A stretch of 17,470 nucleotides of DNA from a virus. The DNA lies in the UHGV virus genome UHGV-0068970; one strand, 5' to 3'. The translations under genes were made by a program, and so were the position numbers. The notes below the pieces were generated by a model. That model was not told the origin of the DNA. It ran no database searches and was given only the letters and a program-made list of their open reading frames with translations. Positions 1 through 15,381 of the stretch are shown piece after piece (position 1 is the first letter of the stretch; every line of letters starts with the position of its first letter).

Positions 1-159
1 CTGAGCCTCAAGACGATCCTGAATGTAATAAGCGTTCATGGCTGAACTCCTGAAATAGCTGTGAAAATATCGCCCGCGAAATGCCGGGCTGATTAGGAAA
101 ACAGGAAAGGAGGTTAGTGAATGCTTTTGCTTGATCTCAGTTTCAGTATTAATATCCAT
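1..159 (-). CDS. gam: Gam (RecBCD inhibitor), N-terminal part only; gene continues beyond window start
   Basis: Reverse-complement translation from the ATG at 157-159 reads [16 protein letters not shown]..., continuing ...[23 protein letters not shown], which I recognise as lambda Gam. The internal ATG at 37-39 corresponds to the short-form start. Overlaps kil by 46 nt as in lambda. Confidence 0.85.
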
Positions 160-257
160 TTTTTATAAGCGTCGACGGCCTCACGAAACATCTTTTCATC
201 GCCAATAAAAGTGGCGATAGTGAATTTAGTCTGGATAGCCATAAGTGTTTGATCCAT
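114..257 (-). CDS. kil: Kil (host cell-division inhibitor), 47 aa
   Basis: Internal Met of the 114..383 minus ORF gives [47 protein letters not shown], recognisably lambda Kil. Start ATG at 255-257 (reverse). Overlaps cIII as in lambda. Confidence 0.85.
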
Positions 258-390
258 TTTTTGGGACTCCTGGCTGATTAAGTATGTCGATAAGGCGTTT
301 CCATCCGTCACGTAATTTACGGGTGATTCGTTCAAGTAAAGATTCGGAAGGGCAGCCAGCAACAGGCCACCCTGCAATGGCATATTGCAT
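226..390 (-). CDS. cIII: cIII (FtsH protease inhibitor), 54 aa
   Basis: Reverse complement from 390 translates [54 protein letters not shown], recognisably lambda cIII. It is in a different frame from the 114..383 track ORF, so it is not listed there. Confidence 0.9.
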   Translation of the reverse strand: MQYAIAGWPVAGCPSESLLERITRKLRDGWKRLIDILNQPGVPKNGSNTYGYPD

Positions 391-462
391 GGTGTGCTCC
401 TTATTTATACATAACGAAAAACGCCTCGAGTGAAGCGTTATTGGTATGCGGTAACGCCGCGC

Positions 463-831
463 TCAGGCGGCTTTGATAGTCATATCATCTGAATCAAATA
501 TTCCTGATGTATCGATATCGGTAATTCTTATTCCTTCGCTACCATCCATTGGAGGCCATCCTTCCTGACCATTTCCATCATTCCAGTCGAACTCACACAC
601 AACACCATATGCATTTAAGTCGCTTGAAATTGCTATAAGCAGAGCATGTTGCGCCAGCATGATTAATACAGCATTTAATACAGAGCCGTGTTTATTGAGT
701 CGGTATTCAGAGTCTGACCAGAAATTATTAATCTGGTGAAGTTTTTCCTCTGTCATTACGTCATGGTCGATTTCAATTTCTATTGATGCTTTCCAGTCGT
801 AATCAATGATGTATTTTTTGATGTTTGACAT
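463..831 (-). CDS. ea10: Ea10 (lambda early protein, ssb-like), 122 aa
   Basis: Track ORF MSNIKKYIIDYDWKASIEIEIDHDVMTEEKLHQINNFWSD... recognised as lambda Ea10. GAGGA-type RBS upstream on the minus strand. Confidence 0.85.
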   Translation of the reverse strand: MSNIKKYIIDYDWKASIEIEIDHDVMTEEKLHQINNFWSDSEYRLNKHGSVLNAVLIMLAQHALLIAISSDLNAYGVVCEFDWNDGNGQEGWPPMDGSEGIRITDIDTSGIFDSDDMTIKAA

Positions 832-851
832 CTATTCATATCCTCACAGAT

Positions 852-878
852 AAAAAATCGCCCTCACATTGGAGGGCA
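852..878 (-). terminator. Putative rho-independent terminator (tL2-like) between sieB region and ea10
   Basis: Minus-strand hairpin GCCCTC-caatgt-GAGGGC (861-878) followed on the minus strand by a U-run (A-run at 852-857 on the plus strand). Confidence 0.4.
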
Positions 879-1091
879 AAGAAGATTTCCAATAATCAGA
901 ACAAGTCGGCTCCTGTTTAGTTACGAGCGACATTGCTCAGTGTATTCACTCGTTGGAATGAATACACAGTGCAGTGTTTATTAGTATGCCTGTCTTTTAA
1001 CCACATCAGGCTCGGTGGTTCTCGTGTACCCCTACAGCGAGAAATCGGATAAACTCTATTCACCCCTACAGAGAGCAAAAGAGAAACGCCG

Positions 1092-1673
1092 ATGAACAAC
1101 TCATGGTGGCAGGAACTAATGCATTTTTTCCTGCAAGGAATGACACTTAAACAGTTGATTCATATGCTAATCATCCTAATCATATTGATTATTGTTATGC
1201 CTGTAAGCGTAAAAGAATGGATAAACCTGCATAATCCAGAAATCCTTCCTCATTACTGGATGTATTACATCCTGTTGTTTTGCGTTAGCTATGTGCTTAA
1301 CGGCGTTGTTAATTCCGCTTATCACGCTGTGACTGAAAGAATTGAGATATTCGCTGCTCAGAAGCGCAAATCTAAAGAAGAGAAATACGTGCAAGATTTG
1401 TTTGATTCGTTAACTCTTGGAGAAAGAGCGTATTTGGCATTCGCTGTAGCCGCTAATAACCAGCTAAAGACAGAAAAGGGAAGCCCTGAAGCAATCTCAT
1501 TGCTCGAAAAAGGGCTTCTTATTCGGGTACCTTCTGCTACTGGATATCCTGAAATCGACCGTTTTGTTATCCCGGAACGCTATAGAAATGAGTGCTACAT
1601 TAGGTTTGCTGGGAAGAAAGACAGTCTTATGGATGAACTTATCGCTCAGGATAAGCATGGCAAAAACAAGTAA
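1092..1673 (+). CDS. sieB: SieB superinfection exclusion protein B (membrane protein), 193 aa
   Basis: Track ORF MNNSWWQELMHFFLQGMTLKQLIHMLIILIILIIVMPV... with a hydrophobic N-terminal segment. Rightward gene embedded in the leftward early operon, as for lambda sieB. Confidence 0.85.
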   Translation: MNNSWWQELMHFFLQGMTLKQLIHMLIILIILIIVMPVSVKEWINLHNPEILPHYWMYYILLFCVSYVLNGVVNSAYHAVTERIEIFAAQKRKSKEEKYVQDLFDSLTLGERAYLAFAVAANNQLKTEKGSPEAISLLEKGLLIRVPSATGYPEIDRFVIPERYRNECYIRFAGKKDSLMDELIAQDKHGKNK

Positions 1674-1689
1674 TTAGCAAATTAATTTA

Positions 1690-1962
1690 TCATCTCGCCG
1701 TCAGTTGTTTTGATTTCCGGTAGCCTGCCGCGTAAATGGCTACGTTTGGCAGGCAAATACTTCCACTGCATTCATCTGCCTTCTTGCAGCGAAGGCTTCC
1801 GAGTGATGCTGCTTTGTCTGCTCTGACGCAACCAGAGAGCTTTAGCGCAATTTTTCGCGCCAGTCGCTGTTCTTGCATTGCCTGCTCACGTTGAGCCTGT
1901 CTGCGTGCTCTGCGGCGATTTCTGGCGTTATCGTCAGCCAGATATGTAATGACTACTGCCAT
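1690..1962 (-). CDS. N: N-type transcription antiterminator (P22 gene 24-like), 90 aa
   Basis: N-terminal arginine-rich motif (NARNRRRARRQAQREQ) and C-terminus ...LPNVAIYAAGYRKSKQLTAR resembling P22 gp24. Position between nutL/pL and sieB. GGAGG RBS 5 nt upstream. Confidence 0.8.
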   Translation of the reverse strand: MAVVITYLADDNARNRRRARRQAQREQAMQEQRLARKIALKLSGCVRADKAASLGSLRCKKADECSGSICLPNVAIYAAGYRKSKQLTAR

Positions 1963-2070
1963 GTTGACCTCCGATGATTGACTTTGGCGGTGACGCGCCG
2001 GGTGCTTATCTTCCGGTTGCCGTCGTGCAGCTGCACTTCACGTCACCCCAAAGCCAACTACTCTTTGGTT

Positions 2071-2111
2071 CCCGCATTTCGGCGGGACAATCCCATCAAT
2101 GTTAAAGAGCC
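2071..2111 (-). promoter_or_regulatory. nutL site (boxA + boxB hairpin) on the leftward transcript
   Basis: Minus-strand reading GGCTCTTTAACA (boxA-like) followed 13 nt later by CCCGC-CGAAAT-GCGGG. The same boxA/boxB pair recurs on the plus strand downstream of cro at 3198-3240. Confidence 0.6.
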
Positions 2112-2156
2112 TGCCAATCTGTTCCGTTTGGCTACCAGCGTCCTGCCGATGACTTA

Positions 2157-2185
2157 AATTTAAGATTTCTTTAACTATTGGTCAA
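2157..2185 (-). promoter_or_regulatory. pL promoter with overlapping OL operator half-sites
   Basis: Minus strand: -35 TTGACC (2180-2185), 17-nt spacer, -10 TAAATT (2157-2162). Flanked by TTAAG/CTTAA operator-like repeats across 2150-2240. Confidence 0.5.
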
Positions 2186-2253
2186 GAGCGTTTTTGAAGA
2201 AAACTTAAATTTTGTTGCGAAGCTTAAGTTTTGCTTTGATTTTTAAAGGAAAG

Positions 2254-2274
2254 AAAAAAAGGGGCGAATGCCCC
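2254..2274 (-). terminator. Rho-independent terminator directly downstream of the repressor gene
   Basis: Hairpin GGGGC-gaat-GCCCC at 2261-2274 abutting the repressor stop (2275-2277), followed on the minus strand by a U-run (A-run 2254-2260 on plus). Confidence 0.5.
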
Positions 2275-2925
2275 TTATGGAAGGTTTGCTATTTTTGCAT
2301 CGACAACTACACCGATGATTTTGCAGTTCCCGTTGATCTCAATCATCGGATATTGTGGGTTAAGTGGTTTTAGAAACCTTCTGCCAGCATCAATAACTAA
2401 CTTCTTGAAAGTTGCCTCGTTTTCTCCTTCGAGCTTTGCCACTACCAGCTTCCCATTACGAGGTTCTACTTCAGGATCGACTAGTATTATCATCCCTTCC
2501 GGGATGCTAAGACCGGCTGGAGCCGTCATCGAATCACCCTTTACGTCCAGCCAAAACGAATCTTCTGAACAATCTACGGTTGTATCGTACCAGTTATCTA
2601 TTGCACGCTTATGATATGGCTCTACAGCTTCCATCCAACATCCTGCGCTTACCCAACTAATTAGAGGATACGAACCTCTTGGATCATGCCTGCTGTGATA
2701 GGCAATGTTTGAAAGACTATCTTCTCCTTTCAACAAGTAATCAGGGGAGCACTGTAAAGCCTTGGCTAAAGCCAATAGGTTTTCGCCATTGGGCTCAGTT
2801 TCAGAACGCTCCCATTGGGAAATAGCAACATTAGACACGCCAACCATCTTGCCAAGGGCAGCCTGCCTAATCTTAAGTTCTTTTCTGCGAGCGCGAATAC
2901 GCTCACCCATCAGTTGTGTATTCAT
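2275..2925 (-). CDS. c2: Prophage repressor, P22 c2-type (HTH + LexA-like S24 autopeptidase domain), 216 aa
   Basis: Track ORF MNTQLMGERIRARRKELKIRQAALGKMVGVSNVAISQWERSE...GDSMTAPAGLSIPEGMIILVD...KLANLP closely resembles P22 c2 as I recall it. Divergent from cro across an operator region. Confidence 0.9.
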   Translation of the reverse strand: MNTQLMGERIRARRKELKIRQAALGKMVGVSNVAISQWERSETEPNGENLLALAKALQCSPDYLLKGEDSLSNIAYHSRHDPRGSYPLISWVSAGCWMEAVEPYHKRAIDNWYDTTVDCSEDSFWLDVKGDSMTAPAGLSIPEGMIILVDPEVEPRNGKLVVAKLEGENEATFKKLVIDAGRRFLKPLNPQYPMIEINGNCKIIGVVVDAKIANLP

Positions 2926-2993
2926 AGTTAAGACATCTTAAATAAACTTGACTTAAGATTCCTTTGATAGATAATTTAAGTGTTCTTTAATTT
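2926..2993. promoter_or_regulatory. OR operator region with pR (rightward) and pRM (leftward)
   Basis: Three 18-bp TTAAG...CTTAA-type sites: perfect palindrome TTAAGACATCTTAA (about 2927-2944), ACTTAAGATTCCTTTGAT (about 2951-2968), ATTTAAGTGTTCTTTAAT (2974-2991). pR: -35 TTGACT 2948-2953, 17-nt spacer, -10 ATAATT 2971-2976. Confidence 0.6.
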
Positions 2994-3005
2994 CGGAGCG
3001 AGTCT

Positions 3006-3191
3006 ATGTACAAGAAAGATGTTATCGACCACTTCGGAACCCAGCGTGCGGTAGCTAAAGCGTTAGGCATTAGCGATGCAGCAGTCTCTCAGTGGAAGGA
3101 AGTCATCCCAGAGAAAGACGCCTATCGACTGGAAGTCGTTACAGCTGGCGCCCTGAAGTATCAAGAAAGTGCTTATCGCAAAGCGGCATAA
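3006..3191 (+). CDS. cro: Cro repressor, P22-type, 61 aa
   Basis: Track ORF MYKKDVIDHFGTQRAVAKALGISDAAVSQWKEVIPEKDAYRLEVVTAGALKYQESAYRKAA matches P22 Cro in my recollection. GGAG RBS at 2994-2997. Confidence 0.9.
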   Translation: MYKKDVIDHFGTQRAVAKALGISDAAVSQWKEVIPEKDAYRLEVVTAGALKYQESAYRKAA

Positions 3192-3197
3192 GCAAAT

Positions 3198-3240
3198 TGC
3201 TCTTTAACAGTCATGGTCCTTATTCCCGCCGAAATGCGGG
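3198..3240 (+). promoter_or_regulatory. nutR site (boxA + boxB hairpin)
   Basis: TGCTCTTTAACA (3198-3209) then CCCGC-CGAAAT-GCGGG (3225-3240): same boxA core and identical boxB hairpin as nutL. Confidence 0.6.
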
Positions 3241-3299
3241 AATACAACGCGCATCAGTTGGTGCGTATAACTTCTTATTTGTTAAGGAAATACTTACAT

Positions 3300-3578
3300 A
3301 TGCAACTTACAAGTACTCGCAAGAAAGCGAATGCAATCACAAGCAACATCCTGAATCGAATTGCTGTACGTGGTCAGCGAAAGGTTGCTGATGCATTAGG
3401 GATTAATGAATCGCAAATTTCGCGATGGAAAGACAGCTTTATCCCAAAGATGGCCATGCTTCTGGCTGTGCTGGAGTGGGGTGTTGAAGACGAGGAATTA
3501 GCAAAGCTAGCAAAGAAAGTAGCCATGGTGCTGACAAAAGAAAAGCCTCAAGACTGCTGCAACAGTTTTGAGGCCTGA
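3300..3578 (+). CDS. cII: cII-type lysogeny establishment activator (P22 c1-like), 92 aa
   Basis: From the internal ATG at 3300 (AAGGA RBS upstream): MQLTSTRKKANAITSNILNRIAVRGQRKVADALGINESQISRWKDSFIPKMAMLLAVLEWGVEDEELAKLAKKVA..., sharing the SQISRWK...IPK..MLLAVLEWGV core with lambda CII. The track ORF's 29 N-terminal residues cover nutR and are probably untranslated. Confidence 0.8.
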   Translation: MQLTSTRKKANAITSNILNRIAVRGQRKVADALGINESQISRWKDSFIPKMAMLLAVLEWGVEDEELAKLAKKVAMVLTKEKPQDCCNSFEA

Positions 3579-3605
3579 TGTAGAAAGACTGGATCAATCC
3601 ACAGG
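3536..3605 (-). ncRNA. oop: oop-like antisense RNA (pO promoter in O start region, terminator overlapping cII 3' end)
   Basis: Minus strand: -35 TTGAGT, 17-nt spacer, -10 CATAAT (plus 3610-3615). About 70 nt downstream, hairpin GCCTCAA...TTGAGGC followed by UUUUCUUUU (plus-strand A-run 3536-3545). Same architecture as lambda oop. Confidence 0.45.
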
Positions 3606-3612
3606 AGTCATT

Positions 3613-4512
3613 ATGACAAATACAGCAAAAATACTCAACTTCGGCAGAGGTAACTTTACCGGACAGGAGCGTAATGTGGCAGATCTCGATGATGGTTACG
3701 CCAGACTATCAAATATGCTGCTTGAGGCTTATTCAGGCGCAGATCTGACCAAGCGACAGTTTAAAGTGCTGCTTGCCATTCTGCGTAAAACCTATGGGTG
3801 GAATAAACCAATGGACAGAATCACCGATTCTCAACTTAGCGAGATTACAAAGTTACCTGTCAAACGGTGCAATGAAGCCAAGTTAGAACTCGTCAGAATG
3901 AATATTATCAAGCAGCAAGGCGGCATGTTTGGACCAAATAAAAACATCTCAGAATGGTGTATCCCTCAAAACGAGGGAAAATCCCCTAAAACGAGGGATA
4001 AAACATCCCTCAAATTGGGGGATTGCTATCCCTCAAAACAGGGGGACACAAAAGACACTATTACAAAAGAAAAAAGAAAAGATTATTCGTCCGAGAATTC
4101 TGGCGAATCCTCTGACCAGCCAGAAAACGATCTTTCTGTGGTTAAACCGGATGCTGCAATTCAGAGCGGCAGCAAGTGGGGGACAGCAGAAGACCTGACC
4201 GCCGCAGAGTGGATGTTTGACATGGTGAAGACCATCGCGCCATCAGCCAGAAAACCGAATTTTGCAGGGTGGGCTAACGATATCCGTCTGATGCGTGAAC
4301 GTGACGGCCGTAACCACCGCGACATGTGCGTGCTGTTCCGCTGGGCATGCCAGGACAACTTCTGGTCCGGTAACGTGCTAAGTCCGGCCAAACTCCGCGA
4401 CAAGTGGACCCAACTCGAAATCAACCGTAACAAGCAACAGGCTGGCGTGACAGCCGGAAAATCAAAACTCGACCTGACAAACACTGACTGGATTTACGGG
4501 GTGGATTTATGA
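3613..4512 (+). CDS. O: Replication initiator O (lambda-type), 299 aa
   Basis: From ATG 3613 (AGGAG RBS 3603-3607): MTNTAKILNFGRGNFTGQERNVADLDDGYARLSNMLLEAYSG..., recognisably lambda O. The track ORF starts upstream at 3568 (stop-to-stop extension). Confidence 0.9.
   Translation: MTNTAKILNFGRGNFTGQERNVADLDDGYARLSNMLLEAYSGADLTKRQFKVLLAILRKTYGWNKPMDRITDSQLSEITKLPVKRCNEAKLELVRMNIIKQQGGMFGPNKNISEWCIPQNEGKSPKTRDKTSLKLGDCYPSKQGDTKDTITKEKRKDYSSENSGESSDQPENDLSVVKPDAAIQSGSKWGTAEDLTAAEWMFDMVKTIAPSARKPNFAGWANDIRLMRERDGRNHRDMCVLFRWACQDNFWSGNVLSPAKLRDKWTQLEINRNKQQAGVTAGKSKLDLTNTDWIYGVDL
3961..4090. repeat. Phage origin of replication: four O-binding iterons plus adjacent A/T-rich unwinding region, inside the O gene
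   Basis: Iterons ATCCCTCAAAACGAGGGA (3961-3978), ATCCCCTAAAACGAGGGAT (3981-3999), CATCCCTCAAATTGGGGGAT (4003-4022), ATCCCTCAAAACAGGGGGAC (4028-4047), then an A-rich tract to about 4090. Confidence 0.8.
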
Positions 4513-5210
4513 AAAACATCGCCGCACAGATGATTAACTTTGACCGTGAGCAGATGCGTCGGATCGCTAACAACATGCCGGAACAGTACGACGAAAAGCC
4601 GCAGGTACAGCAGGTAGCGCAGATCATCAATGGTGTGTTCAGCCAGTTACTGGCAACTTTCCCGGCGAGCCTGGCTAACCGGGACCAGAACGAACTGAAC
4701 GAAATCCGCCGCCAGTGGGTTCTGGCTTTCCGGGAAAACGGGATCACCACAATGGAACAGGTTAACGCAGGAATGCGCGTAGCCCGTCGGCAGAATCGAC
4801 CATTCCTGCCATCACCCGGGCAGTTTGTCGCCTGGTGCCGGGAAGAAGCATCTGTTAACGCCGGGCTGCCAAACGTCAGCGAGCTGGTTGATATGGTTTA
4901 CGAGTATTGCCGGAAGCGTGGCCTGTATCCGGATGCAGAGTCTTATCCGTGGAAATCGAACGCGCATTACTGGTTGGTTACCAACTTGTACCAGAACATG
5001 CGGGCCAATGCGCTGACTGACGCGGAATTACGGCGCAAGGCTGCCGATGAACTGACCTGTATGACAGCGCGAATTAACCGTGGTGAGACGATACCTGAAC
5101 CAGTAAAACAACTTCCTGTTATGGGCGGTAGACCTCTAAATCGTGCACAGGCTCTGGCGAAGATCGCAGAAATTAAAGCTAAGTTCGGACTGAAAGGAGC
5201 AAGTGTATGA
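4509..5210 (+). CDS. P: Replication protein P (DnaB helicase loader), 233 aa
   Basis: Track ORF MKNIAAQMINFDREQMRRIANNMPEQYDEKPQVQQVAQIINGVFSQLL..., recognisably lambda P. ATGA overlap with the O stop. Confidence 0.9.
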   Translation: MKNIAAQMINFDREQMRRIANNMPEQYDEKPQVQQVAQIINGVFSQLLATFPASLANRDQNELNEIRRQWVLAFRENGITTMEQVNAGMRVARRQNRPFLPSPGQFVAWCREEASVNAGLPNVSELVDMVYEYCRKRGLYPDAESYPWKSNAHYWLVTNLYQNMRANALTDAELRRKAADELTCMTARINRGETIPEPVKQLPVMGGRPLNRAQALAKIAEIKAKFGLKGASV

Positions 5211-5509
5211 CGGGCAAAGAGGCAATTATTCATTACCTGGGGACGCATAAGAGCTTCTGTGCACAGGACGTTGCCGCGGTAACAGGCGCAACCGTAACCA
5301 GCATAAATCAGGCTGCGGCTAAAATGGCGCGGGCAGGAATCCTGGTCGTTGATGGTAAGGTCTGGCGAACGGTGTATTACCGGTTCGCTACCAGAGAAGA
5401 ACGGGAAGGAAAGGTGAGCACGAATCTGATTTTTAAGGAGTGTCGCCAGAGTGCCGCGATGAAACGGGTATTGAGGGTATATAAAAGAACATCAATGGGT
5501 ACACAATGA
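5207..5509 (+). CDS. ren: Ren (Rex exclusion resistance) protein, 100 aa
   Basis: Track ORF MTGKEAIIHYLGTHKSFCAQDVAAVTGATVTSINQAAAKMARAGILVVDGKVWRTVYYRFATREEREGK..., lambda Ren-like. ATGA overlap with the P stop. Confidence 0.85.
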   Translation: MTGKEAIIHYLGTHKSFCAQDVAAVTGATVTSINQAAAKMARAGILVVDGKVWRTVYYRFATREEREGKVSTNLIFKECRQSAAMKRVLRVYKRTSMGTQ

Positions 5510-5576
5510 TGAAACAGGTGAGTTGAGTTCAAACTGTAGTACAATTCTCTCCAGTTTGAACAGGAAAGAATATGTT

Positions 5577-5909
5577 ATGAACCCTTATATTTATCTTGGT
5601 GGTGCAATACTTGCAGAGGTCATTGGTACAACCTTAATGAAGTTTTCAGAAGGTTTTACACGGTTATGGCCATCTGTTGGTACAATTATTTGTTATTGTG
5701 CATCATTCTGGTTATTAGCTCAGACGCTGGCTTATATTCCTACAGGGATTGCTTATGCTATCTGGTCAGGAGTCGGTATTGTCCTGATTAGCTTACTATC
5801 ATGGGGGTTTTTCGGCCAACGGCTGGACCTGCCAGCCGTTATAGGCATGATGTTGATTTGTGCTGGTGTGTTGGTTATTAATTTATTGTCACGAAGCACA
5901 CCACATTAA
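5577..5909 (+). CDS. emrE: EmrE small multidrug resistance (SMR) efflux transporter, 110 aa
   Basis: From the internal ATG at 5577: MNPYIYLGGAILAEVIGTTLMKFSEGFTRLWPSVGTIICYCASFWLLAQTLAYIPTGIAYAIWSGVGIVLISLLSWGFFGQRLDLPA..., recognisably E. coli EmrE (four TM helices, conserved Glu at position 14). emrE is a known DLP12 cargo gene. Confidence 0.9.
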   Translation: MNPYIYLGGAILAEVIGTTLMKFSEGFTRLWPSVGTIICYCASFWLLAQTLAYIPTGIAYAIWSGVGIVLISLLSWGFFGQRLDLPAVIGMMLICAGVLVINLLSRSTPH

Positions 5910-6153: not shown

Positions 6154-7680
6154 ATGAAAAAAGCCATAGCATATATGCGATTTTCATCACCAGGTCAGAT
6201 GTCTGGCGACTCATTAAACCGACAGAGAAGACTTATTGCTGAATGGTTAAAGGTAAATAGTGATTATTATCTTGATACCATAACATATGAAGATTTAGGA
6301 TTAAGTGCATTCAAAGGAAAGCATGCACAATCAGGAGCTTTTTCGGAATTTTTAGATGCTATAGAGCATGGTTATATATTGCCAGGAACTACATTGCTAG
6401 TTGAAAGTCTGGACAGACTTTCAAGAGAAAAAGTCGGTGAAGCGATTGAGCGTCTGAAATTGATTTTGAATCACGGTATTGATGTTATAACTCTTTGCGA
6501 TAATACAGTCTATAATATTGACTCTTTGAATGATCCATATTCATTAATAAAAGCCATACTTATAGCACAAAGGGCAAATGAAGAAAGCGAGATAAAGTCA
6601 AGTCGGGTTAAATTATCATGGAAGAAAAAACGGCAGGATGCACTGGAGTCAGGCACGATTATGACGGCGTCTTGTCCGAGATGGCTCTCATTGGATGACA
6701 AAAGAACAGCTTTTATTCCAGACCCCGACAGGGTGAAAACGATTGAGCTAATTTTTAAACTCAGGATGGAAAGGCGATCATTGAATGCAATAGCCAAGTA
6801 TTTAAATGATCATGCTGTAAAAAATTTCTCAGGAAAAGAAAGTGCATGGGGGCCTTCTGTAATTGAAAAATTATTAGCGAATAAAGCTCTGATAGGTATA
6901 TGCGTACCTTCATATCGTGCAAGAGGTAAAGGAATAAGTGAAATCGCTGGCTATTATCCCAGAGTCATATCAGATGATTTGTTTTACGCTGTGCAGGAAA
7001 TTCGGTTGGCACCTTTTGGTATTAGCAATAGTAGCAAAAATCCTATGTTGATAAATCTACTTCGAACAGTTATGAAGTGCGAGGCTTGTGGTAATACCAT
7101 GATTGTTCAGGCGGTATCTGGAAGTTTGCATGGCTATTATGTTTGTCCGATGAGAAGACTGCATCGATGTGGCAGGCCATCAATAAAGAGAAATTTGGTT
7201 GATTATAATATCATTAATGAGTTGCTTTTTAATTGTAGTAAAATCCAACCAGTTGAAAACAAGAAAGATGCTAATGAAACTTTAGAGTTAAAAATTATTG
7301 AGCTCCATATGAAAATTAATAATTTAATTGCTGCATTATCTGTTGCGCCTGAAGTTACCGCTATAGCAGAAAAAATCAGAGTATTAGATAAGGAATTACG
7401 AAGGGCTTCTGTATCATTAAAAACTTTGAAGAGTAAAGCGGTGAGCTCACTTGGTGATTTTCATGCTATTGACTTAACCAGTAAAAATGGGCGAGAGCTA
7501 TGTCGTACACTTGCCTATAAAACATTCGAAAAAATCATAATCAATACAGATAATAAAACCTGTGATATCTATTTTATGAATGGCATTGTTTTTAAACACT
7601 ATCCTTTAATGAAAACAATATCCGCCCAGCAGGCGATAAGTACTCTCAAATATATGGTTGATGGTGAGGTTTATTTTTGA
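6154..7680 (+). CDS. ybcK: Large serine recombinase (resolvase catalytic domain + recombinase domain + zinc ribbon), YbcK-like, 508 aa
   Basis: N-terminal AIAYMRFSSPGQ...SLNRQ resolvase-type motif, central recombinase region, Cys cluster CEACGNTM...YYVCPMRRLHRCG, coiled-coil tail. Matches my recollection of DLP12 YbcK. AT-rich relative to the flanking phage genes. Confidence 0.85.
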   Translation: MKKAIAYMRFSSPGQMSGDSLNRQRRLIAEWLKVNSDYYLDTITYEDLGLSAFKGKHAQSGAFSEFLDAIEHGYILPGTTLLVESLDRLSREKVGEAIERLKLILNHGIDVITLCDNTVYNIDSLNDPYSLIKAILIAQRANEESEIKSSRVKLSWKKKRQDALESGTIMTASCPRWLSLDDKRTAFIPDPDRVKTIELIFKLRMERRSLNAIAKYLNDHAVKNFSGKESAWGPSVIEKLLANKALIGICVPSYRARGKGISEIAGYYPRVISDDLFYAVQEIRLAPFGISNSSKNPMLINLLRTVMKCEACGNTMIVQAVSGSLHGYYVCPMRRLHRCGRPSIKRNLVDYNIINELLFNCSKIQPVENKKDANETLELKIIELHMKINNLIAALSVAPEVTAIAEKIRVLDKELRRASVSLKTLKSKAVSSLGDFHAIDLTSKNGRELCRTLAYKTFEKIIINTDNKTCDIYFMNGIVFKHYPLMKTISAQQAISTLKYMVDGEVYF

Positions 7681-10173: not shown

Positions 10174-10532
10174 ATACCTACAGCATCACATTACCCTGGC
10201 CTCCGAGCAATAATCGCTATTACCGCCATAATCGCGGGCGCACGCACGTCAGCGCAGAGGGGCAGGCATACCGCGATAACGTCGCCCGAATCATTAAAAA
10301 CGCAATGCTGGATATCGGCCTGGCTATGCCTGTGAAAATCCGCATTGAGTGCCACATGCCGGATCGCCGTCGCCGTGACCTGGATAATCTGCAAAAAGCC
10401 GCTTTTGACGCACTCACTAAAGCAGGTTTCTGGCTGGATGATGCTCAGGTCGTTGATTACCGCGTTGTGAAGATGCCTGTTACCAAAGGTGGGAGGCTGG
10501 AACTGACCATCACCGAAATGGGGAATGAATGA
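10170..10532 (+). CDS. rusA: RusA Holliday-junction resolvase, 120 aa
   Basis: GTG start at 10170. [48 protein letters not shown]..., recognised as RusA. Confidence 0.9.
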
Positions 10533-10669
10533 TGTTTGAGTTTAATATGGCAGAACTTCTTCGCCACCGCTGGGGGCGTCTGCGCTTATATCGTTTCCCC
10601 GGTTCTGTTTTGACCGATTACCGAATACTGAAGAATTACGCCAAAACACTGACAGGAGCAGGAGTATGA
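10529..10669 (+). CDS. ylcG: YlcG small protein, 46 aa
   Basis: Not in the track (under 60 aa). Manual translation [50 protein letters not shown] overlap with the rusA stop. Confidence 0.7.
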
Positions 10670-10754
10670 AGTCAGAGATAACAATCAACTAATACTGTTT
10701 TGTTGATTTTTGCTTGTAATTGGCGTTCTGGTCTGAGTTTTGTGGAGTAAGTTG

Positions 10755-11132
10755 ATGCGTGATATTCAGATGGTTCTTGAGCGTTGGGGAGCGTGGGCGG
10801 CTAATAATCATGAAGATGTGACCTGGTCGTCCATTGCCGCCGGTTTTAAGGGATTAATTCCTTCAAAAGTAAAATCTCGCCCACAATGTTGTGACGATGA
10901 CGCGATGATCATTTGCGGGTGCATGGCCCGTCTGAAAAAGAACAACAGCGATTTGCATGATTTATTGGTGGACTATTATGTCGGCGGCATGACTTTTATG
11001 GCGCTTGCACGTAAGCATGGGCGATCTGATTGTTGGGTTGGCAGGATGCTTCAGAAAGCTGAGGGCGTAGTGGAGGGTATGCTGATGGTGTTGGATCTCC
11101 GATTGGAGATGGATGCTGATTGTTCGAAATAA
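10755..11132 (+). CDS. quuD: Late-gene antiterminator Q (QuuD-type), about 125 aa
   Basis: [33 protein letters not shown]...[18 protein letters not shown]... recognised as DLP12 QuuD. ATG at 10755 preceded by GGAG. The track ORF begins at an upstream TTG (10740). Confidence 0.85.
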
Positions 11133-11230
11133 TTAAAGGAAAAGTTGCTGTCTGATTGTCATTAGTCTAACATTTTAAATGTTGGAATCGCAACGTAGTT
11201 ATTATCATATAACAGCTTGTTTCCTGATTT

Positions 11231-11259
11231 AGCCAGCCTCCCCAAAGGCTGGTTTTTTT
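11231..11259 (+). terminator. tR'-like rho-independent terminator downstream of Q (target of Q antitermination)
   Basis: Hairpin CCAGCC-tccccaaa-GGCTGG followed by TTTTTTT (11253-11259), about 100 nt after the quuD stop. Confidence 0.6.
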
Positions 11260-11287
11260 CTAATAAGTATTATTTCGGGTAGGGATT

Positions 11288-11812
11288 TTATTGTTTAACC
11301 CATAATAATTCATTGACATTGAATCCCAACTTTTGAGCGGTTCGCACATAGTCTGCTTTTACTTTATCTGGAATAGTTGGGGTCCTTGCCAGAATCCATA
11401 GGTATTCTCTGTTCGGACCACTGACAAGAGCATACTTATACTCATCATCCAGTTTGATTACATTATAGCCACCATAGAAGGGGCCAAAAAACGAAACCTT
11501 CAATGCTGCAGTTTTAGTATCTCCAGTAAAGTATGCTTTACCTTCGCTCTCGCTCCATTTATTTTTCGTTGGATCGTATCCACGGTTAAGTACACGAATC
11601 CCTCCGTCGTTCCGTTTTCCATAAGTAGCGCTGACCTGTTCCAGACCACGTTCGAACCGGTTCTCGAGGCGAGCTATTTCATACCATTTTCCGAGGTAGC
11701 GGTTGGCGTCAAAATTTGTAATCGGCTGCACACCTTTAGGTGGTGTCGGGGCCTTACATGCTATAAGAGTGAAAGAGAGTGCAATGCCAGTCAACACAGG
11801 CCATAACTTCAT
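11288..11812 (-). CDS. blc: Blc-like outer-membrane lipocalin lipoprotein, 174 aa
   Basis: Signal peptide with lipobox (LIAC). NFDANRYLGKWYEIARLENRFERGLEQVSATY...KVSFFGPFYGGYNVIKLD...YLWILARTP closely parallels E. coli Blc. Encoded antisense to the late transcript. Confidence 0.8.
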   Translation of the reverse strand: MKLWPVLTGIALSFTLIACKAPTPPKGVQPITNFDANRYLGKWYEIARLENRFERGLEQVSATYGKRNDGGIRVLNRGYDPTKNKWSESEGKAYFTGDTKTAALKVSFFGPFYGGYNVIKLDDEYKYALVSGPNREYLWILARTPTIPDKVKADYVRTAQKLGFNVNELLWVKQ

Positions 11813-12004
11813 AATAAATCCTGTACTTTTGATAGTTGAGAGTAAGTATGAAAGATAGATGATTACGACCGATCACTTAAAGAACTTTCATACTATATTA
11901 GGAATAGTCCATAACAGAAAAATTGTCAGTGATGACGCCAGAAAGGCAATTTATTCCGTGCACTACACAGTTTATGTGTTAATGAATTAGTCAAGGGGGA
12001 GAAT

Positions 12005-12964
12005 ATGATAAAAAAACCTGTGATTGGAATCAGCGGTTGTTTGGCCGGTTCTGCTGTTCGTTTTGATGGTGGTCACAAAAGAGCTGACTTTTTAATGGAC
12101 AAATTAGTGGAATGGGTAACATTCAGACCAGTATGTCCGGAAATGGCTATAGGGCTGCCAGTTCCGCGTCCTGCTCTACGTCTTGTGCGCTCGATGCAAG
12201 GAAATATACGGATGTGTTTCAGCCACGACCAGAATGAGGATGTGACAGAGAGAATGACAGAGTTTAGTCGTTCTTATATGGACAAATTAAAGGATGTATC
12301 GGGGTTTGTGGTTTGTGCTAAATCTCCCAGCTGTGGCATGGAGCGCGTGCGTGTCTATGATGAAAATGGTAATCGAGGTCGTAAAGATGGAGTGGGACTA
12401 TTTACGAGCACTTTGATGGAAAAGTTTTCCTGGCTACCGGTTGAAGAGGATGGGCGATTACATGATCCAGTGCTTCGTGAGAATTTTGTTGAAAGAGTTT
12501 TTGCTTTGCATGAGCTCAATCACCTTTACAAGGAGAAATTATCAAGAAGAGAGTTATTAGCTTTTCATAGTCGTTATAAGCTTCAGTTGTTGGCGCATAG
12601 TCAGGCAGGCTATAAAGATATGGGACCATTTGTGGCTGCAATACACGAGTGGGCGGACCTTGAATCATACTTTGAGGTGTATCGTGATAAGCTGATGGCG
12701 ATTCTCAGAAAACCTGCATCACGTAAAAATCACACGAATGTGCTGATGCATATACAGGGGTATTTTAGTAACTACTTAAGTACACGCCAGCGTAAAGAGT
12801 TGAGCGAGGTTATACTTAACTATCGTTCTGGCACATTACCTCTTCTTGCGCCGTTGACTCTGCTGAAGCATTATCTGGGTGAGTATCCTAATGATTACTT
12901 GCTTACACAGAATTACTTCGATCCCTATCCGGACGAACTGGCTCTAAGACTGATGGTAAATTAA
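12005..12964 (+). CDS. DUF523 (TudS-like putative [4Fe-4S] thiouracil desulfidase) / DUF1722 (YbgA-like) fusion protein, 319 aa
   Basis: N-terminal half carries the DUF523 pattern GISGCLAGSAVRFDG ... PVCPEMAIGLPVPRP ... CAKSPSCGM with three conserved Cys. C-terminal about 170 aa is consistent with a YbgA-like DUF1722 domain. AGGGGGA RBS. Domain assignment from memory, not a search. Confidence 0.7.
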   Translation: MIKKPVIGISGCLAGSAVRFDGGHKRADFLMDKLVEWVTFRPVCPEMAIGLPVPRPALRLVRSMQGNIRMCFSHDQNEDVTERMTEFSRSYMDKLKDVSGFVVCAKSPSCGMERVRVYDENGNRGRKDGVGLFTSTLMEKFSWLPVEEDGRLHDPVLRENFVERVFALHELNHLYKEKLSRRELLAFHSRYKLQLLAHSQAGYKDMGPFVAAIHEWADLESYFEVYRDKLMAILRKPASRKNHTNVLMHIQGYFSNYLSTRQRKELSEVILNYRSGTLPLLAPLTLLKHYLGEYPNDYLLTQNYFDPYPDELALRLMVN

Positions 12965-13315
12965 TTGTATGCGATATCATCCAAAAGGATGAGTTCCTGC
13001 ATGCAGGATATTTACAATCGTAAAAACTACACTATGATACCCAGAGTGTCAGTTTGTATAAAAACTCTGTTTACGCTGAAGAAACAATTGAGATGCAACT
13101 TAAAGTTGGTAAACATGCCAGTCAAAATATATAATATTATGATTCCACGCAGCTATATATAATATAACAGATTGGTTTAATAATTTGTCTTTGTGAGTTA
13201 AATACATAATTTTATACTTGTGATGCAATGAAATTTTCCTTATTGTTGAACTGGCGAATATTGATTTTCCACCTATACTTACCTGGTGTAACCCCAATGA
13301 TATCAGGTGGATAAT

Positions 13316-14047
13316 ATGCCATACATATGTTCTATCATTTTGGTGTTGAACTCGTTTGATGTCCGAATTGGTAAAGAAGATATTTTGTTTAAAAAAGGAA
13401 GTGCTGTTCTCATTGATTACAATTTAAAAGATTTTTTTTCATCAAATATAGATCATGTAATGATCGTAGATGTTGAAGAGAAAACAGTTAATGATTTCTT
13501 TAAAAGCAACACACTCTCACCTTTTTCTGTAAGAAGGTTTTATCCGGCATACTTGATGGTGGAATGTGAAGATTTTTCATTGTTAAAGAACTTGATTGCA
13601 TGCTTGAATTGTGATGGCAGAACTGTGGATTTTGTTAGAAATCAAATATCACTTGCATGTCTTGCTATCTTATCTTCAGAGAAAATAGTGCAAAGTTTTT
13701 TATTTGGATGTCTTAATAGTTTAGGAAGTAAAGTTAAGGCTATTATTCACACGGATATATCTGCAGCATGGAGACTTTGTGATATATCTTCAAGACTGTA
13801 TCTGAGTGAAAGTCTGTTAAAAAGAAAATTAAAGCACGAAGGCTTATCATTTAGTAAGTTAATTCTTGAAGAGCGAATGGTGATGGCGGAAAGGTTATTA
13901 AGCTACAATTTATATTCTGTTGGAAAAGTTGCTGAGATATGCGGTTATGAAAACACGTCATATTTTGTAAGTGTTTTCAGAAGGTATTTTGGTGTTCCTC
14001 CCCATCAATATTCATCAAGATTTTTTTTAGAAAAAGACATGATGTAA
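13316..14047 (+). CDS. AraC/XylS-family transcriptional regulator, about 243 aa
   Basis: C-terminal AraC-type HTH signature (...ERMVMAERLLSYNLYSVGKVAEICGYENTSYFVSVFRRYFGVPPHQY). Very AT-rich gene and upstream region. ATG 13316 has an AGGTGG RBS; the track's 13307 start is an upstream GTG. Confidence 0.8.
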   Translation: MPYICSIILVLNSFDVRIGKEDILFKKGSAVLIDYNLKDFFSSNIDHVMIVDVEEKTVNDFFKSNTLSPFSVRRFYPAYLMVECEDFSLLKNLIACLNCDGRTVDFVRNQISLACLAILSSEKIVQSFLFGCLNSLGSKVKAIIHTDISAAWRLCDISSRLYLSESLLKRKLKHEGLSFSKLILEERMVMAERLLSYNLYSVGKVAEICGYENTSYFVSVFRRYFGVPPHQYSSRFFLEKDMM

Positions 14048-14234
14048 CGTGATGCGTTTTAATGATTTTGTAATTTTCGTATTTGATAATTGTATGATGC
14101 TTTCAGCTACGCCAGAATAATCGCGGCGTTTTTCTTTTTGAATAGATGTTCAAGCCTTACGCTAATGTAACTTCTATACCTTTCCTCTTCGTTCCGAACC
14201 GTGTACACCATCCGTTATTTGCGGAGGTGAGGCT

Positions 14235-14450
14235 ATGAAATCCATGGATAAGTTAACAACGGGTGTCGCCTATGGCACCTCAGCAGGTAGTGCCGGTTAC
14301 TGGTTTTTACAGCTGCTCGATAAAGTCACGCCCTCACAGTGGGCAGCAATAGGTGTGCTGGGTAGCCTGGTATTTGGCCTGCTGACGTACCTGACAAACC
14401 TTTATTTCAAGATTAAAGAAGATAAGCGCAAGGCTGCGAGAGGTGAATAA
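14235..14450 (+). CDS. essD: Class II holin (phage 21 S-type pinholin), dual-start motif, 71 aa
   Basis: [71 protein letters not shown], recognisably S21/EssD. Two TM segments. Met1 and Met4 dual start. Confidence 0.9.
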
Positions 14451-14947
14451 TGCCTCCATCATTACGAAAAGCCGTTGCTGCTGCTATTGGTGGCGGAGCA
14501 ATTGCTATAGCATCAGTGTTAATCACTGGCCCAAGTGGTAACGATGGTCTGGAAGGTGTCAGCTACATACCATACAAAGATATTGTTGGTGTATGGACTG
14601 TATGTCACGGGCATACAGGAAAAGACATCATGCTCGGTAAAACGTATACCAAAGCAGAATGCAAAACACTCTTGAATAAAGACCTTGCCACGGTCGCCAG
14701 ACAAATTAACCCGTACATCAAAGTCGATATACCGGAAACAACGCGCGGCGCTCTTTACTCGTTCGTCTACAACGTGGGTGCTGGCAATTTCAGAACATCG
14801 ACGCTTCTTCGCAAAATAAACCACGGTGATATCAAAGGCGCATGTGATCAGCTACGGCGCTGGACATACGCTGGCGGTAATCAATGGAAAGGACTGATGA
14901 CTCGCCGTGAGATTGAGCGTGAAGTCTGTTTGTGGGGGAAACAATGA
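14450..14947 (+). CDS. rrrD: SAR endolysin (T4-lysozyme-fold muramidase with N-terminal signal-anchor-release domain), 165 aa
   Basis: Gly/Ala-rich hydrophobic N-terminus ([20 protein letters not shown]) then a lysozyme catalytic region (E...D...T spacing), R21/RrrD-like. TAATG overlap with the holin stop. Confidence 0.9.
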
Positions 14948-15381
14948 GCAGAGTAACCGCGATTATCTCCGCTCTGGTTATCTGCATCATCGTCTGCCTG
15001 TCATGGGCGGTTAATCATTACCGTGATAACGCCATCGCCTACAAAGAACAGCGCGATAAAGCCACATCCACAATCGCTGACATGCAGAAGCGTCAACGTG
15101 ACGTAGCAGAACTCGATGCCAGATACACAAAGGAGCTTGCTGATGCTAACGCGACTATCGAAAGCCTCCGTGCTGATGTTTCTGCTGGTCGTAAGCGCCT
15201 GCAAGTCGCCGCCACCTGTGCAAAGTCAACGACCGGAGCCAGCGGCATGGGCGATGGAGAAAGCCCAGGACTTACAGCAGATGCTGAACTCAATTATTAC
15301 CGTCTCCGAAGTGGAATCGACAGGATAACCGCGCAGGTTAACTACCTGCAGGAGTACATCAGGACTCAGTGCCTGAAATAA
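14944..15381 (+). CDS. rzpD: Rz-type inner-membrane spanin (i-spanin), 145 aa
   Basis: From ATG 14944 (ATGA overlap with the endolysin stop): [26 protein letters not shown]... N-terminal TM segment followed by coiled-coil-like periplasmic region. Contains rzoD in the +1 frame. Confidence 0.85.
15143..15328 (+). CDS. rzoD: Rz1-type outer-membrane lipoprotein spanin (o-spanin), embedded in +1 frame of Rz, 61 aa
   Basis: AAGGAG RBS (15130-15135) then ATG 15143: [36 protein letters not shown]... Lipobox VSAC and Pro-rich mature region. Entirely inside rzpD. Confidence 0.7.

Follow-up and report, generated by a model that had tools for sequence, protein, structure and literature searches.

The question raised by this locus is a simple one: what is a gene for a lipocalin lipoprotein of the Blc type doing between the antiterminator and the lysis genes of a prophage, and does it serve the phage, its lysogenic host or neither of them? 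The DNA that we analysed, hereafter the window, is a stretch of 17,470 nt from UHGV-0068970, and it corresponds to the early-right and lysis region of a lambda/DLP12-like prophage of E. coli. We hold it for probable, with a confidence somewhat better than even, that the gene is a cargo gene (a moron), namely a Blc paralogue carried by lambda/DLP12-like prophages in the variable slot that separates Q from the lysis genes, where it would serve the envelope of the lysogen.

The order of the genes in the window is sieB, a cI-type repressor gene, O, P, emrE, a serine recombinase gene, rusA and Q. The nin region carries, as does that of DLP12, an emrE-type small multidrug-resistance pump gene (5577-5909, plus strand) and a ybcK-like serine recombinase gene of 508 aa (6154-7680, plus strand). 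The antiterminator Q (10755-11132, plus strand; PF06530) is of the QuuD/DLP12 type and a distant relative of Q21. Downstream of Q come three genes that do not look like phage genes, and then a phage-21-type holin, a lysozyme and Rz (the lysis cassette, 14235-15381, plus strand), followed by a KilA-N protein and an HNH protein. An Rfam scan of positions 10500-14400 gave no meaningful match.

The first of these three genes is the lipocalin gene, on the minus strand, and it is divergent from the second, a YbgA-like gene of 319 aa (12005-12964, plus strand) that is sense to late transcription. The product of the latter joins a DUF523 domain (2-thiouracil desulfurase family) to a DUF1722 domain, with a weak match of PDB 6z92 to the TudS-like part. 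The model of E. coli's own ybgA covers only residues 160-315 of this protein, which thus appears to be a longer form, found in the searched data beside lipocalins of the same clade in other genera. That the lipocalin gene diverges from a DUF523 gene over some 190 bp had already been read from the letters, and the gap indeed measures 192 bp (11813-12004). The third gene (13316-14047, plus strand) encodes an AraC-family regulator of 243 aa, YdeO/GadX-like in that YdeO and GadX are its best matches, both of them far under their cutoffs; with a GC content of 31.8%, it is the only one of the cargo genes that stands out in composition. It can be likened to PatE, PsrA and PsrB, the regulators of O157 prophages, as a protein of the same broad kind, by kind alone. 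The AraC-like gene is absent or cut in about 10 of the 80 viral contigs.

The lipocalin gene itself (11288-11812, minus strand) starts with ATG, encodes 174 aa plus a stop and belongs to the Blc subfamily, in what we will describe as its second enterobacterial clade. Its signal peptide (11756-11812, minus strand), as read from the translation, begins with MKLWPVLTGIALSFTLIAC and carries the lipobox L-I-A-C at residues 16-19. This signal peptide is the same in all phage alleles and is conserved in chromosomal relatives, and the lipobox cysteine, Cys19, is invariant across 26 relatives; the residue at position +2 after it is Lys, not Asp. According to the established Lgt/LspA/Lnt and Lol rules, from which processing and sorting are deduced here, Cys19 is the predicted lipidation site and the +2 Lys predicts sorting to the outer membrane. 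The mature part leaves little ambiguity as to the family. Pfam Lipocalin_2 (PF08212) matches residues 35-174 (E 7e-44, 149.7 bits against a cutoff of 24), the NCBIfam model NF007786 ('outer membrane lipoprotein Blc') is matched over 1-174 of its 176 positions (316.1 bits against a cutoff of 267), and the E. coli Blc structures 3mbt, 1qwd and 2aco align ungapped over their entire length, 155-159 residues (E 4e-69 to 8e-68). The core motifs GxWYEIAR, FFGPFYGGYNV and YLWILxRTP are all present. The description of the product as a Blc-type lipocalin lipoprotein with an LIAC lipobox is thus fully borne out, and homology to the solved Blc establishes the predicted fold, that is an eight-stranded barrel with a C-terminal helix. 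An AlphaFold model built on the 26-sequence alignment was discarded (pLDDT 60.7; Foldseek lipocalin matches at a TM of about 0.4). By analogy with Blc, the phage lipocalin may bind fatty acids or lysophospholipids.

Is this gene then simply the host's own blc? The sequence-only reading had allowed that an alignment with the chromosomal gene might reveal nothing more than the host blc locus captured as flanking DNA. There are reasons to ask, since the E. coli protein (b4149; 1qwd, 2aco, 3mbt) shares the NCBIfam subfamily, the length and the lipobox of the phage protein, and some genome annotations do call the phage gene blc. However, the two are only 59% identical in amino acids and 61% in nucleotides, with a GC content of 43.8% for the phage gene vs 53.4% for that of K-12; the DNA upstream of the phage gene is unrelated to that upstream of K-12 blc, and no ampC or gdx flanks it. 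A scan at one genome per species split the lipocalins into two groups. For those linked to ampC and/or gdx, identity amounts to 57-61% with the phage protein and 76-87% with K-12 Blc; for those of the second group, found in Enterobacter, Leclercia, Huaxiibacter, Buttiauxella, Raoultella and Kosakonia, the respective values are 74-81% and 65-67%. A protein search added further relatives of this second clade in Klebsiella, Cedecea and Scandinavium, which brings the range of identity to the phage lipocalin, over all searches, to 74-82% in amino acids. In a neighbour-joining tree, the phage lipocalins fall inside the second group, apart from all the Blc proteins linked to ampC/gdx, and Buttiauxella izardii carries one lipocalin of each clade (L019, L024). 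An orthologue of blc would share both its clade and its ampC/gdx neighbourhood, and the phage gene shares neither, its clade being that of the locus with the MlrA-like and YbgA-like genes described below. These comparisons indicate that the phage lipocalin is related to E. coli blc as a paralogue and not as an orthologue. As the gene moreover has phage DNA on either side and is also carried by free, plaque-forming phages, a capture of host blc as flanking DNA is ruled out for all practical purposes, with hardly any probability left to it.

If not from blc, where does the gene come from? In its closest relatives (82% identical in amino acids, in metagenomic contigs), the lipocalin gene is divergent from a three-gene unit that encodes an MlrA-like regulator of the MerR family, a transthyretin-like protein (hydroxyisourate hydrolase family) and a 319-aa DUF523 + DUF1722 protein. 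The MlrA-like regulator and the YbgA-like gene also adjoin the lipocalin gene in the loci of Enterobacter, Leclercia, Buttiauxella and Raoultella, the order of the three genes having been verified gene by gene in Enterobacter bugandensis; the lipocalin locus of Huaxiibacter is without the regulator. The YbgA-like protein of the phage is 72-73% identical to its chromosomal counterpart. Because the neighbour of the phage lipocalin is thus the same partner as in clade-2 chromosomes, the pair was apparently captured together, without the regulator, and it is most simply read as a fragment of such a locus from which the two middle genes were lost. This capture does not appear to be recent: synonymous sites between phage and chromosomal lipocalins are saturated (pS about 0.9), the chromosomal clade-2 genes have a GC content of 57-60% vs 43-44% in the phage, and the intergenic region shows no detectable homology.

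In Klebsiella, Cedecea and Scandinavium (loci L006, L005 and L008, positions about 100-5900), the clade-2 lipocalin gene is divergent from an MlrA-like regulator followed by a cluster of SnoaL, SDR, amine-oxidase-like, DUF1365, CFA-synthase-like and DUF2878 genes. By order and size alone, the cluster from SnoaL to DUF2878 is collinear with RSP1091-1087 of Rhodobacter (ufaD/ufaO), which is a furan-fatty-acid operon (PMC7380195). The literature searched held nothing direct on a link between lipocalins and either light or furan fatty acids. One may nevertheless imagine that the lipocalin and the YbgA-like protein are a working pair, issued from an MlrA-like-regulated stress locus that E. coli lacks, and that they give lysogens a capacity for lipid handling or oxidised-lipid repair distinct from that of Blc. 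We regard this as a rather unlikely extension of the main proposal. If it were true, lambdoid phages would have carried the pair, released from its regulator, into a fifth of E. coli strains.

The position of the gene is best understood from what surrounds it. A tR'-like intrinsic terminator follows Q (11231-11260, plus strand; 9-bp stem, -14.9 kcal/mol, z -4.0, seven-U run) and sits 28 nt from the stop codon of the lipocalin gene. Between the end of Q (11132) and this terminator there is no ORF, an arrangement typical of a late promoter followed by tR'. No second terminator-like site was found by a terminator scan from there up to 14300, and in IdasGreatGrand, Lambda_2E9 and their relatives, which are isolated, plaque-forming phages with this cassette, the genes for lysis, terminase and head come next, on the plus strand. 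Transcription modified by Q must thus pass over the lipocalin gene, which lies antisense to the only path between Q and the lysis and structural genes. The earlier claim that the gene is antisense to Q-dependent late transcription holds, with Q on one side and the lysis genes on the other, both on the plus strand, and the lipocalin gene between them on the minus strand. Short blocks common to DLP12 and mEp332 follow Q within 11133-11230, for instance ATATAACAG at 11208-11216, and could represent the late promoter or the Q-utilisation site. The comparison with DLP12 and mEp332 did not place the late promoter itself, the spacing of ATATAACAG-type blocks to -35-like hexamers being inconsistent.

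The comparison with mEp332 is particularly telling with regard to the slot. The Q gene of this phage is 95% identical and its lysis genes 98% identical to those of the window, but the interval between Q and S holds nmpC instead: homology stops at position 11114 of the window and resumes from 14224. This nmpC (L173, 2876-4745) is on the minus strand, like the lipocalin gene, and DLP12 (in 434B) likewise carries nmpC. These alignments indicate that the Q-to-S interval is an exchange cassette, held by the lipocalin module in some phages and by nmpC in others. In the window, the exchangeable cargo cassette spans 11115-14223 and comprises, on both strands, the tail of Q, the terminator, the lipocalin gene, the YbgA-like gene and the AraC-like gene. 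That nmpC occupies this place in the same direction agrees with a slot tolerant of leftward genes whose products are outer-membrane proteins, and the presence of other cargo in an otherwise near-identical phage is what one expects at the site of a moron. Lc, the porin of the same kind in PA-2, is reportedly produced in PA-2 lysogens. The NmpC/Lc porin genes of DLP12, PA-2 and mEp332 thus resemble the lipocalin gene in encoding an outer-membrane protein, in their slot and in their direction opposite to late transcription; they differ from it in that they encode a porin, not a lipoprotein, of unrelated sequence. A similar parallel can be drawn with lambda Bor, also a small outer-membrane lipoprotein encoded beside the lysis genes and opposite to late transcription, which is grouped together with blc as a membrane moron, but with another fold, a position after Rz and a serum-resistance phenotype.

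Such a convergent geometry could also mean that what counts is the transcription unit and less so the protein, with leftward transcription from the lipocalin promoter colliding with rightward transcripts of the late promoter and so acting as a brake on leaky late expression. Indeed, the lipocalin's own strand has no intrinsic terminator that we could find 3' of the gene, and the hairpin at 11231-11260 has no U run behind it in the minus direction, so the lipocalin transcript meets no terminator before it reaches the Q region; in the sister phages, nmpC likewise fills this slot and points leftward. We find such a brake very improbable, since unmodified late transcripts are stopped beforehand by the terminator that follows Q, the promoter scan described below gave no evidence for a strong promoter, and strong purifying selection acts on the amino-acid sequence.

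A moron serving the lysogen has to be expressed from the lysogen, and we will now consider what the promoter region and the published data say on this point. In the 192-bp intergenic region, the half nearer to the lipocalin gene is the better conserved among phage alleles. It contains a candidate -10 hexamer, CATACT followed by TA (11845-11850, minus strand), which lies 32 nt upstream of the ATG and is a consensus match only. This element (CATACTTA) bears a likeness to the CTACACTT element that is found upstream of K-12 blc and of chromosomal relatives, and every phage allele reads either CATACT or AATACT there (AATACT in Lambda_2E9). A sigma-70 promoter scan gave nothing convincing upstream of the lipocalin gene, and the CATACT element was not among its predictions. 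Promoter homology with nine chromosomal relatives and K-12 blc was also considered, on account of the short collinear blocks AATATAGTATGAA and CATACTTA, and rejected as evidence; the intergenic region aligned to the chromosomal upstream DNA with a local score of 16 vs 15.2 +/- 2.1 for shuffles. A perfect 10-bp inverted repeat (AGTATGAAAG at 11847-11856 and CTTTCATACT at 11896-11905) overlaps the candidate -10, and it is probably due to chance because the alleles of Lambda_2E9 and E. coli B have it broken. The motif GCACTACAC, which precedes the YbgA-like gene, matches the upstream motif of chromosomal lipocalins, in this phage allele only.

More direct information comes from a proteome. In a TMT study of the clinical strain E. 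coli CCUG 70745 (2026), the protein WP_000780581.1 was quantified with and without meropenem, and it rose 2.0-fold and 3.0-fold with the antibiotic, through peptides that are possibly shared with the chromosomal Blc (PMC13459554). A rise of 2-3-fold after 15 min of meropenem was common to many membrane proteins in that study (PMC13459554). We checked the sequence of WP_000780581.1, and it is identical to that of the lipocalin of the window. Going by this single proteome study, the lipocalin is likely made in lysogens. The sequence-only reading had reached the same expectation from the antisense orientation; orientation alone proves nothing of the kind and the -10 is a consensus-level one, so that the part of the argument that stands is the quantification of the identical protein (PMC13459554). 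The further step, a role of the lipocalin in lysogenic conversion, is put forward here as a hypothesis, the literature searched having yielded no conversion phenotype for it. Serum resistance has been assigned to orf10 of prophage phiv142-3 (PMC7724020); the arms of the primers used for its knockout have no match in the window.

The most serious doubt is perhaps whether the gene does anything at all. It could be a passive hitch-hiker, a neutral cargo of the Q-to-S cassette that benefits neither the lysogen nor the phage. Several facts agree with this: the GC content of the gene (43.8%) is that of the window on average (44.1%), so that base composition does not single it out as a moron; E. coli already has blc; and the sister phages without the lipocalin are viable. 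The pattern of substitution and retention, however, speaks against it. Of the changes that separate two phage alleles, 20 are synonymous and 5 non-synonymous, a dN/dS of 0.065, which means that purifying selection acts on the gene among phages and that the reading frame cannot be a chance ORF. Every position that is invariant in the clade is kept in the phage lipocalin, and the differences are conservative. The full-length gene is found in all of the 80 viral contigs examined, with Q alongside in 79 of them, and it also stays intact in decayed prophages whose neighbouring genes have been cut by IS elements or deleted. This is the case of a degraded prophage found between ybhC and bioA, at the site where lambda attaches, and of the Qin prophage of the E. 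coli B derivative T7Express (L171, 9156-11212), which holds Q and an intact lipocalin gene beside a YbgA-like gene cut by IS3, the lysis and late genes being gone. Widely used laboratory strains of the B lineage thus possess this additional lipocalin. Together with the detection of the protein (PMC13459554), this makes the hitch-hiker unlikely, and a moron that serves the lysogen is the reading that we retain.

The distribution of the module is wide. Of 5426 complete E. coli genomes, 1153 contain the 3-kb stretch formed by Q and the lipocalin, YbgA-like and AraC-like genes. So do 12 deposited phages, and in 11 of them the lipocalin gene is annotated as 'Lipocalin Blc'. In 11 isolated phages, the module is found at about 90% nucleotide identity over 94-95% of the 3 kb, and in IdasGreatGrand at 99.3% over its full length. 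The allele of the window is the commonest one, with an identical stretch from Q to ybgA in 10 of 84 loci. The Q and lipocalin proteins encoded on a 2113-bp contig of a 'Candidatus Nanosynbacter' MAG (L010) are 99-100% identical in amino acids to those of the window, and this contig is almost certainly mis-binned DNA of an E. coli prophage. In E. coli plasmids, 364 places match part of the lipocalin gene. Plasmid-borne lipocalins resemble the phage gene in being carried by a mobile element, but with 67-74% nucleotide identity over only part of the gene, they represent a different mobilised lipocalin, presumably one linked to the Citrobacter ampC (CMY-2).

Much of this was already known. The gene, its position and its moron status are in the literature and the databases, where the lipocalin gene is an ordinary moron: 'blc' was described as a moron of more than 50% of the gut Lambda-like coliphages (Mathieu et al. 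2020, PMC6969025), and PHROGs has families for all three cargo genes, the lipocalin being phrog_2809. The moron of Mathieu et al. (in Lambda_ev*, Lambda_2E9 and 1H12, and also in IdasGreatGrand) is the same gene, in the same place, as that of the window. These authors treat it as plain blc, whereas we find it in another clade than E. coli blc and paired with its chromosomal partner. Lipocalin genes have been noted in prophages of Sinorhizobium too (PMC12429752). The view taken in the sequence-only reading, that lipocalins are not typical genes of phages, is therefore wrong for this group of phages, given their frequency in coliphages (PMC6969025), the existence of phrog_2809 and the 1153 of 5426 genomes.

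A conserved and probably expressed gene could still work for the phage and not for the lysogen. Lambdoid phages are known to use small outer-membrane lipoproteins for exclusion, and T5 Llp and Cor exclude superinfecting phages by masking or altering the receptor. The lipocalin could mask a receptor in the same way, or it could condition the outer membrane for lysis or virion release. The same prophage carries sieB, and the alternative cargo of the slot, a porin, also changes the cell surface. Against such a function, the invariant positions of the clade are all kept and the differences conservative, with no sign of a new function; the partner gene in the cassette is the same as in chromosomes; and the antisense position implies that the gene would be turned down, not up, in lytic growth. 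A phage-directed role thus strikes us as improbable, a little more so than neutrality, and we come back to the moron that serves the envelope of the lysogen.

The way in which such a moron might function can be proposed as follows. The lipocalin and YbgA-like genes would have been captured together from a chromosomal locus, with the loss of the two middle genes. In the lysogen, the lipocalin gene would be transcribed from its own weak promoter, possibly of the sigma-S type; K-12 blc is RpoS-dependent (PMC4512719). The terminator just after Q would halt the transcripts that start at the late promoter, and therefore nothing would run against the lipocalin gene until Q is made. The precursor would be exported by Sec, lipidated on Cys19 and delivered by Lol to the outer membrane; in the inner leaflet of this membrane, its beta-barrel cup may bind fatty acids or lysophospholipids as that of Blc does, and so help the envelope under stress, the physiological role of Blc being itself uncertain. 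After induction, the Q-modified polymerase would cross the gene antisense and probably shut the lipocalin off. The benefit would go to the lysogen and hence, indirectly, to the prophage.

What this adds to the published picture is modest: the paralogy to blc, the pairing with a chromosomal YbgA-like partner and the exchange with nmpC at the slot. It nevertheless means that the 'blc' label given to the phage gene in annotations merges two paralogues. As about one in five complete E. coli genomes carries the cassette, the laboratory B lineage included, an extra outer-membrane lipocalin could be an unnoticed variable in experiments on envelope stress, antibiotic tolerance and gut fitness.
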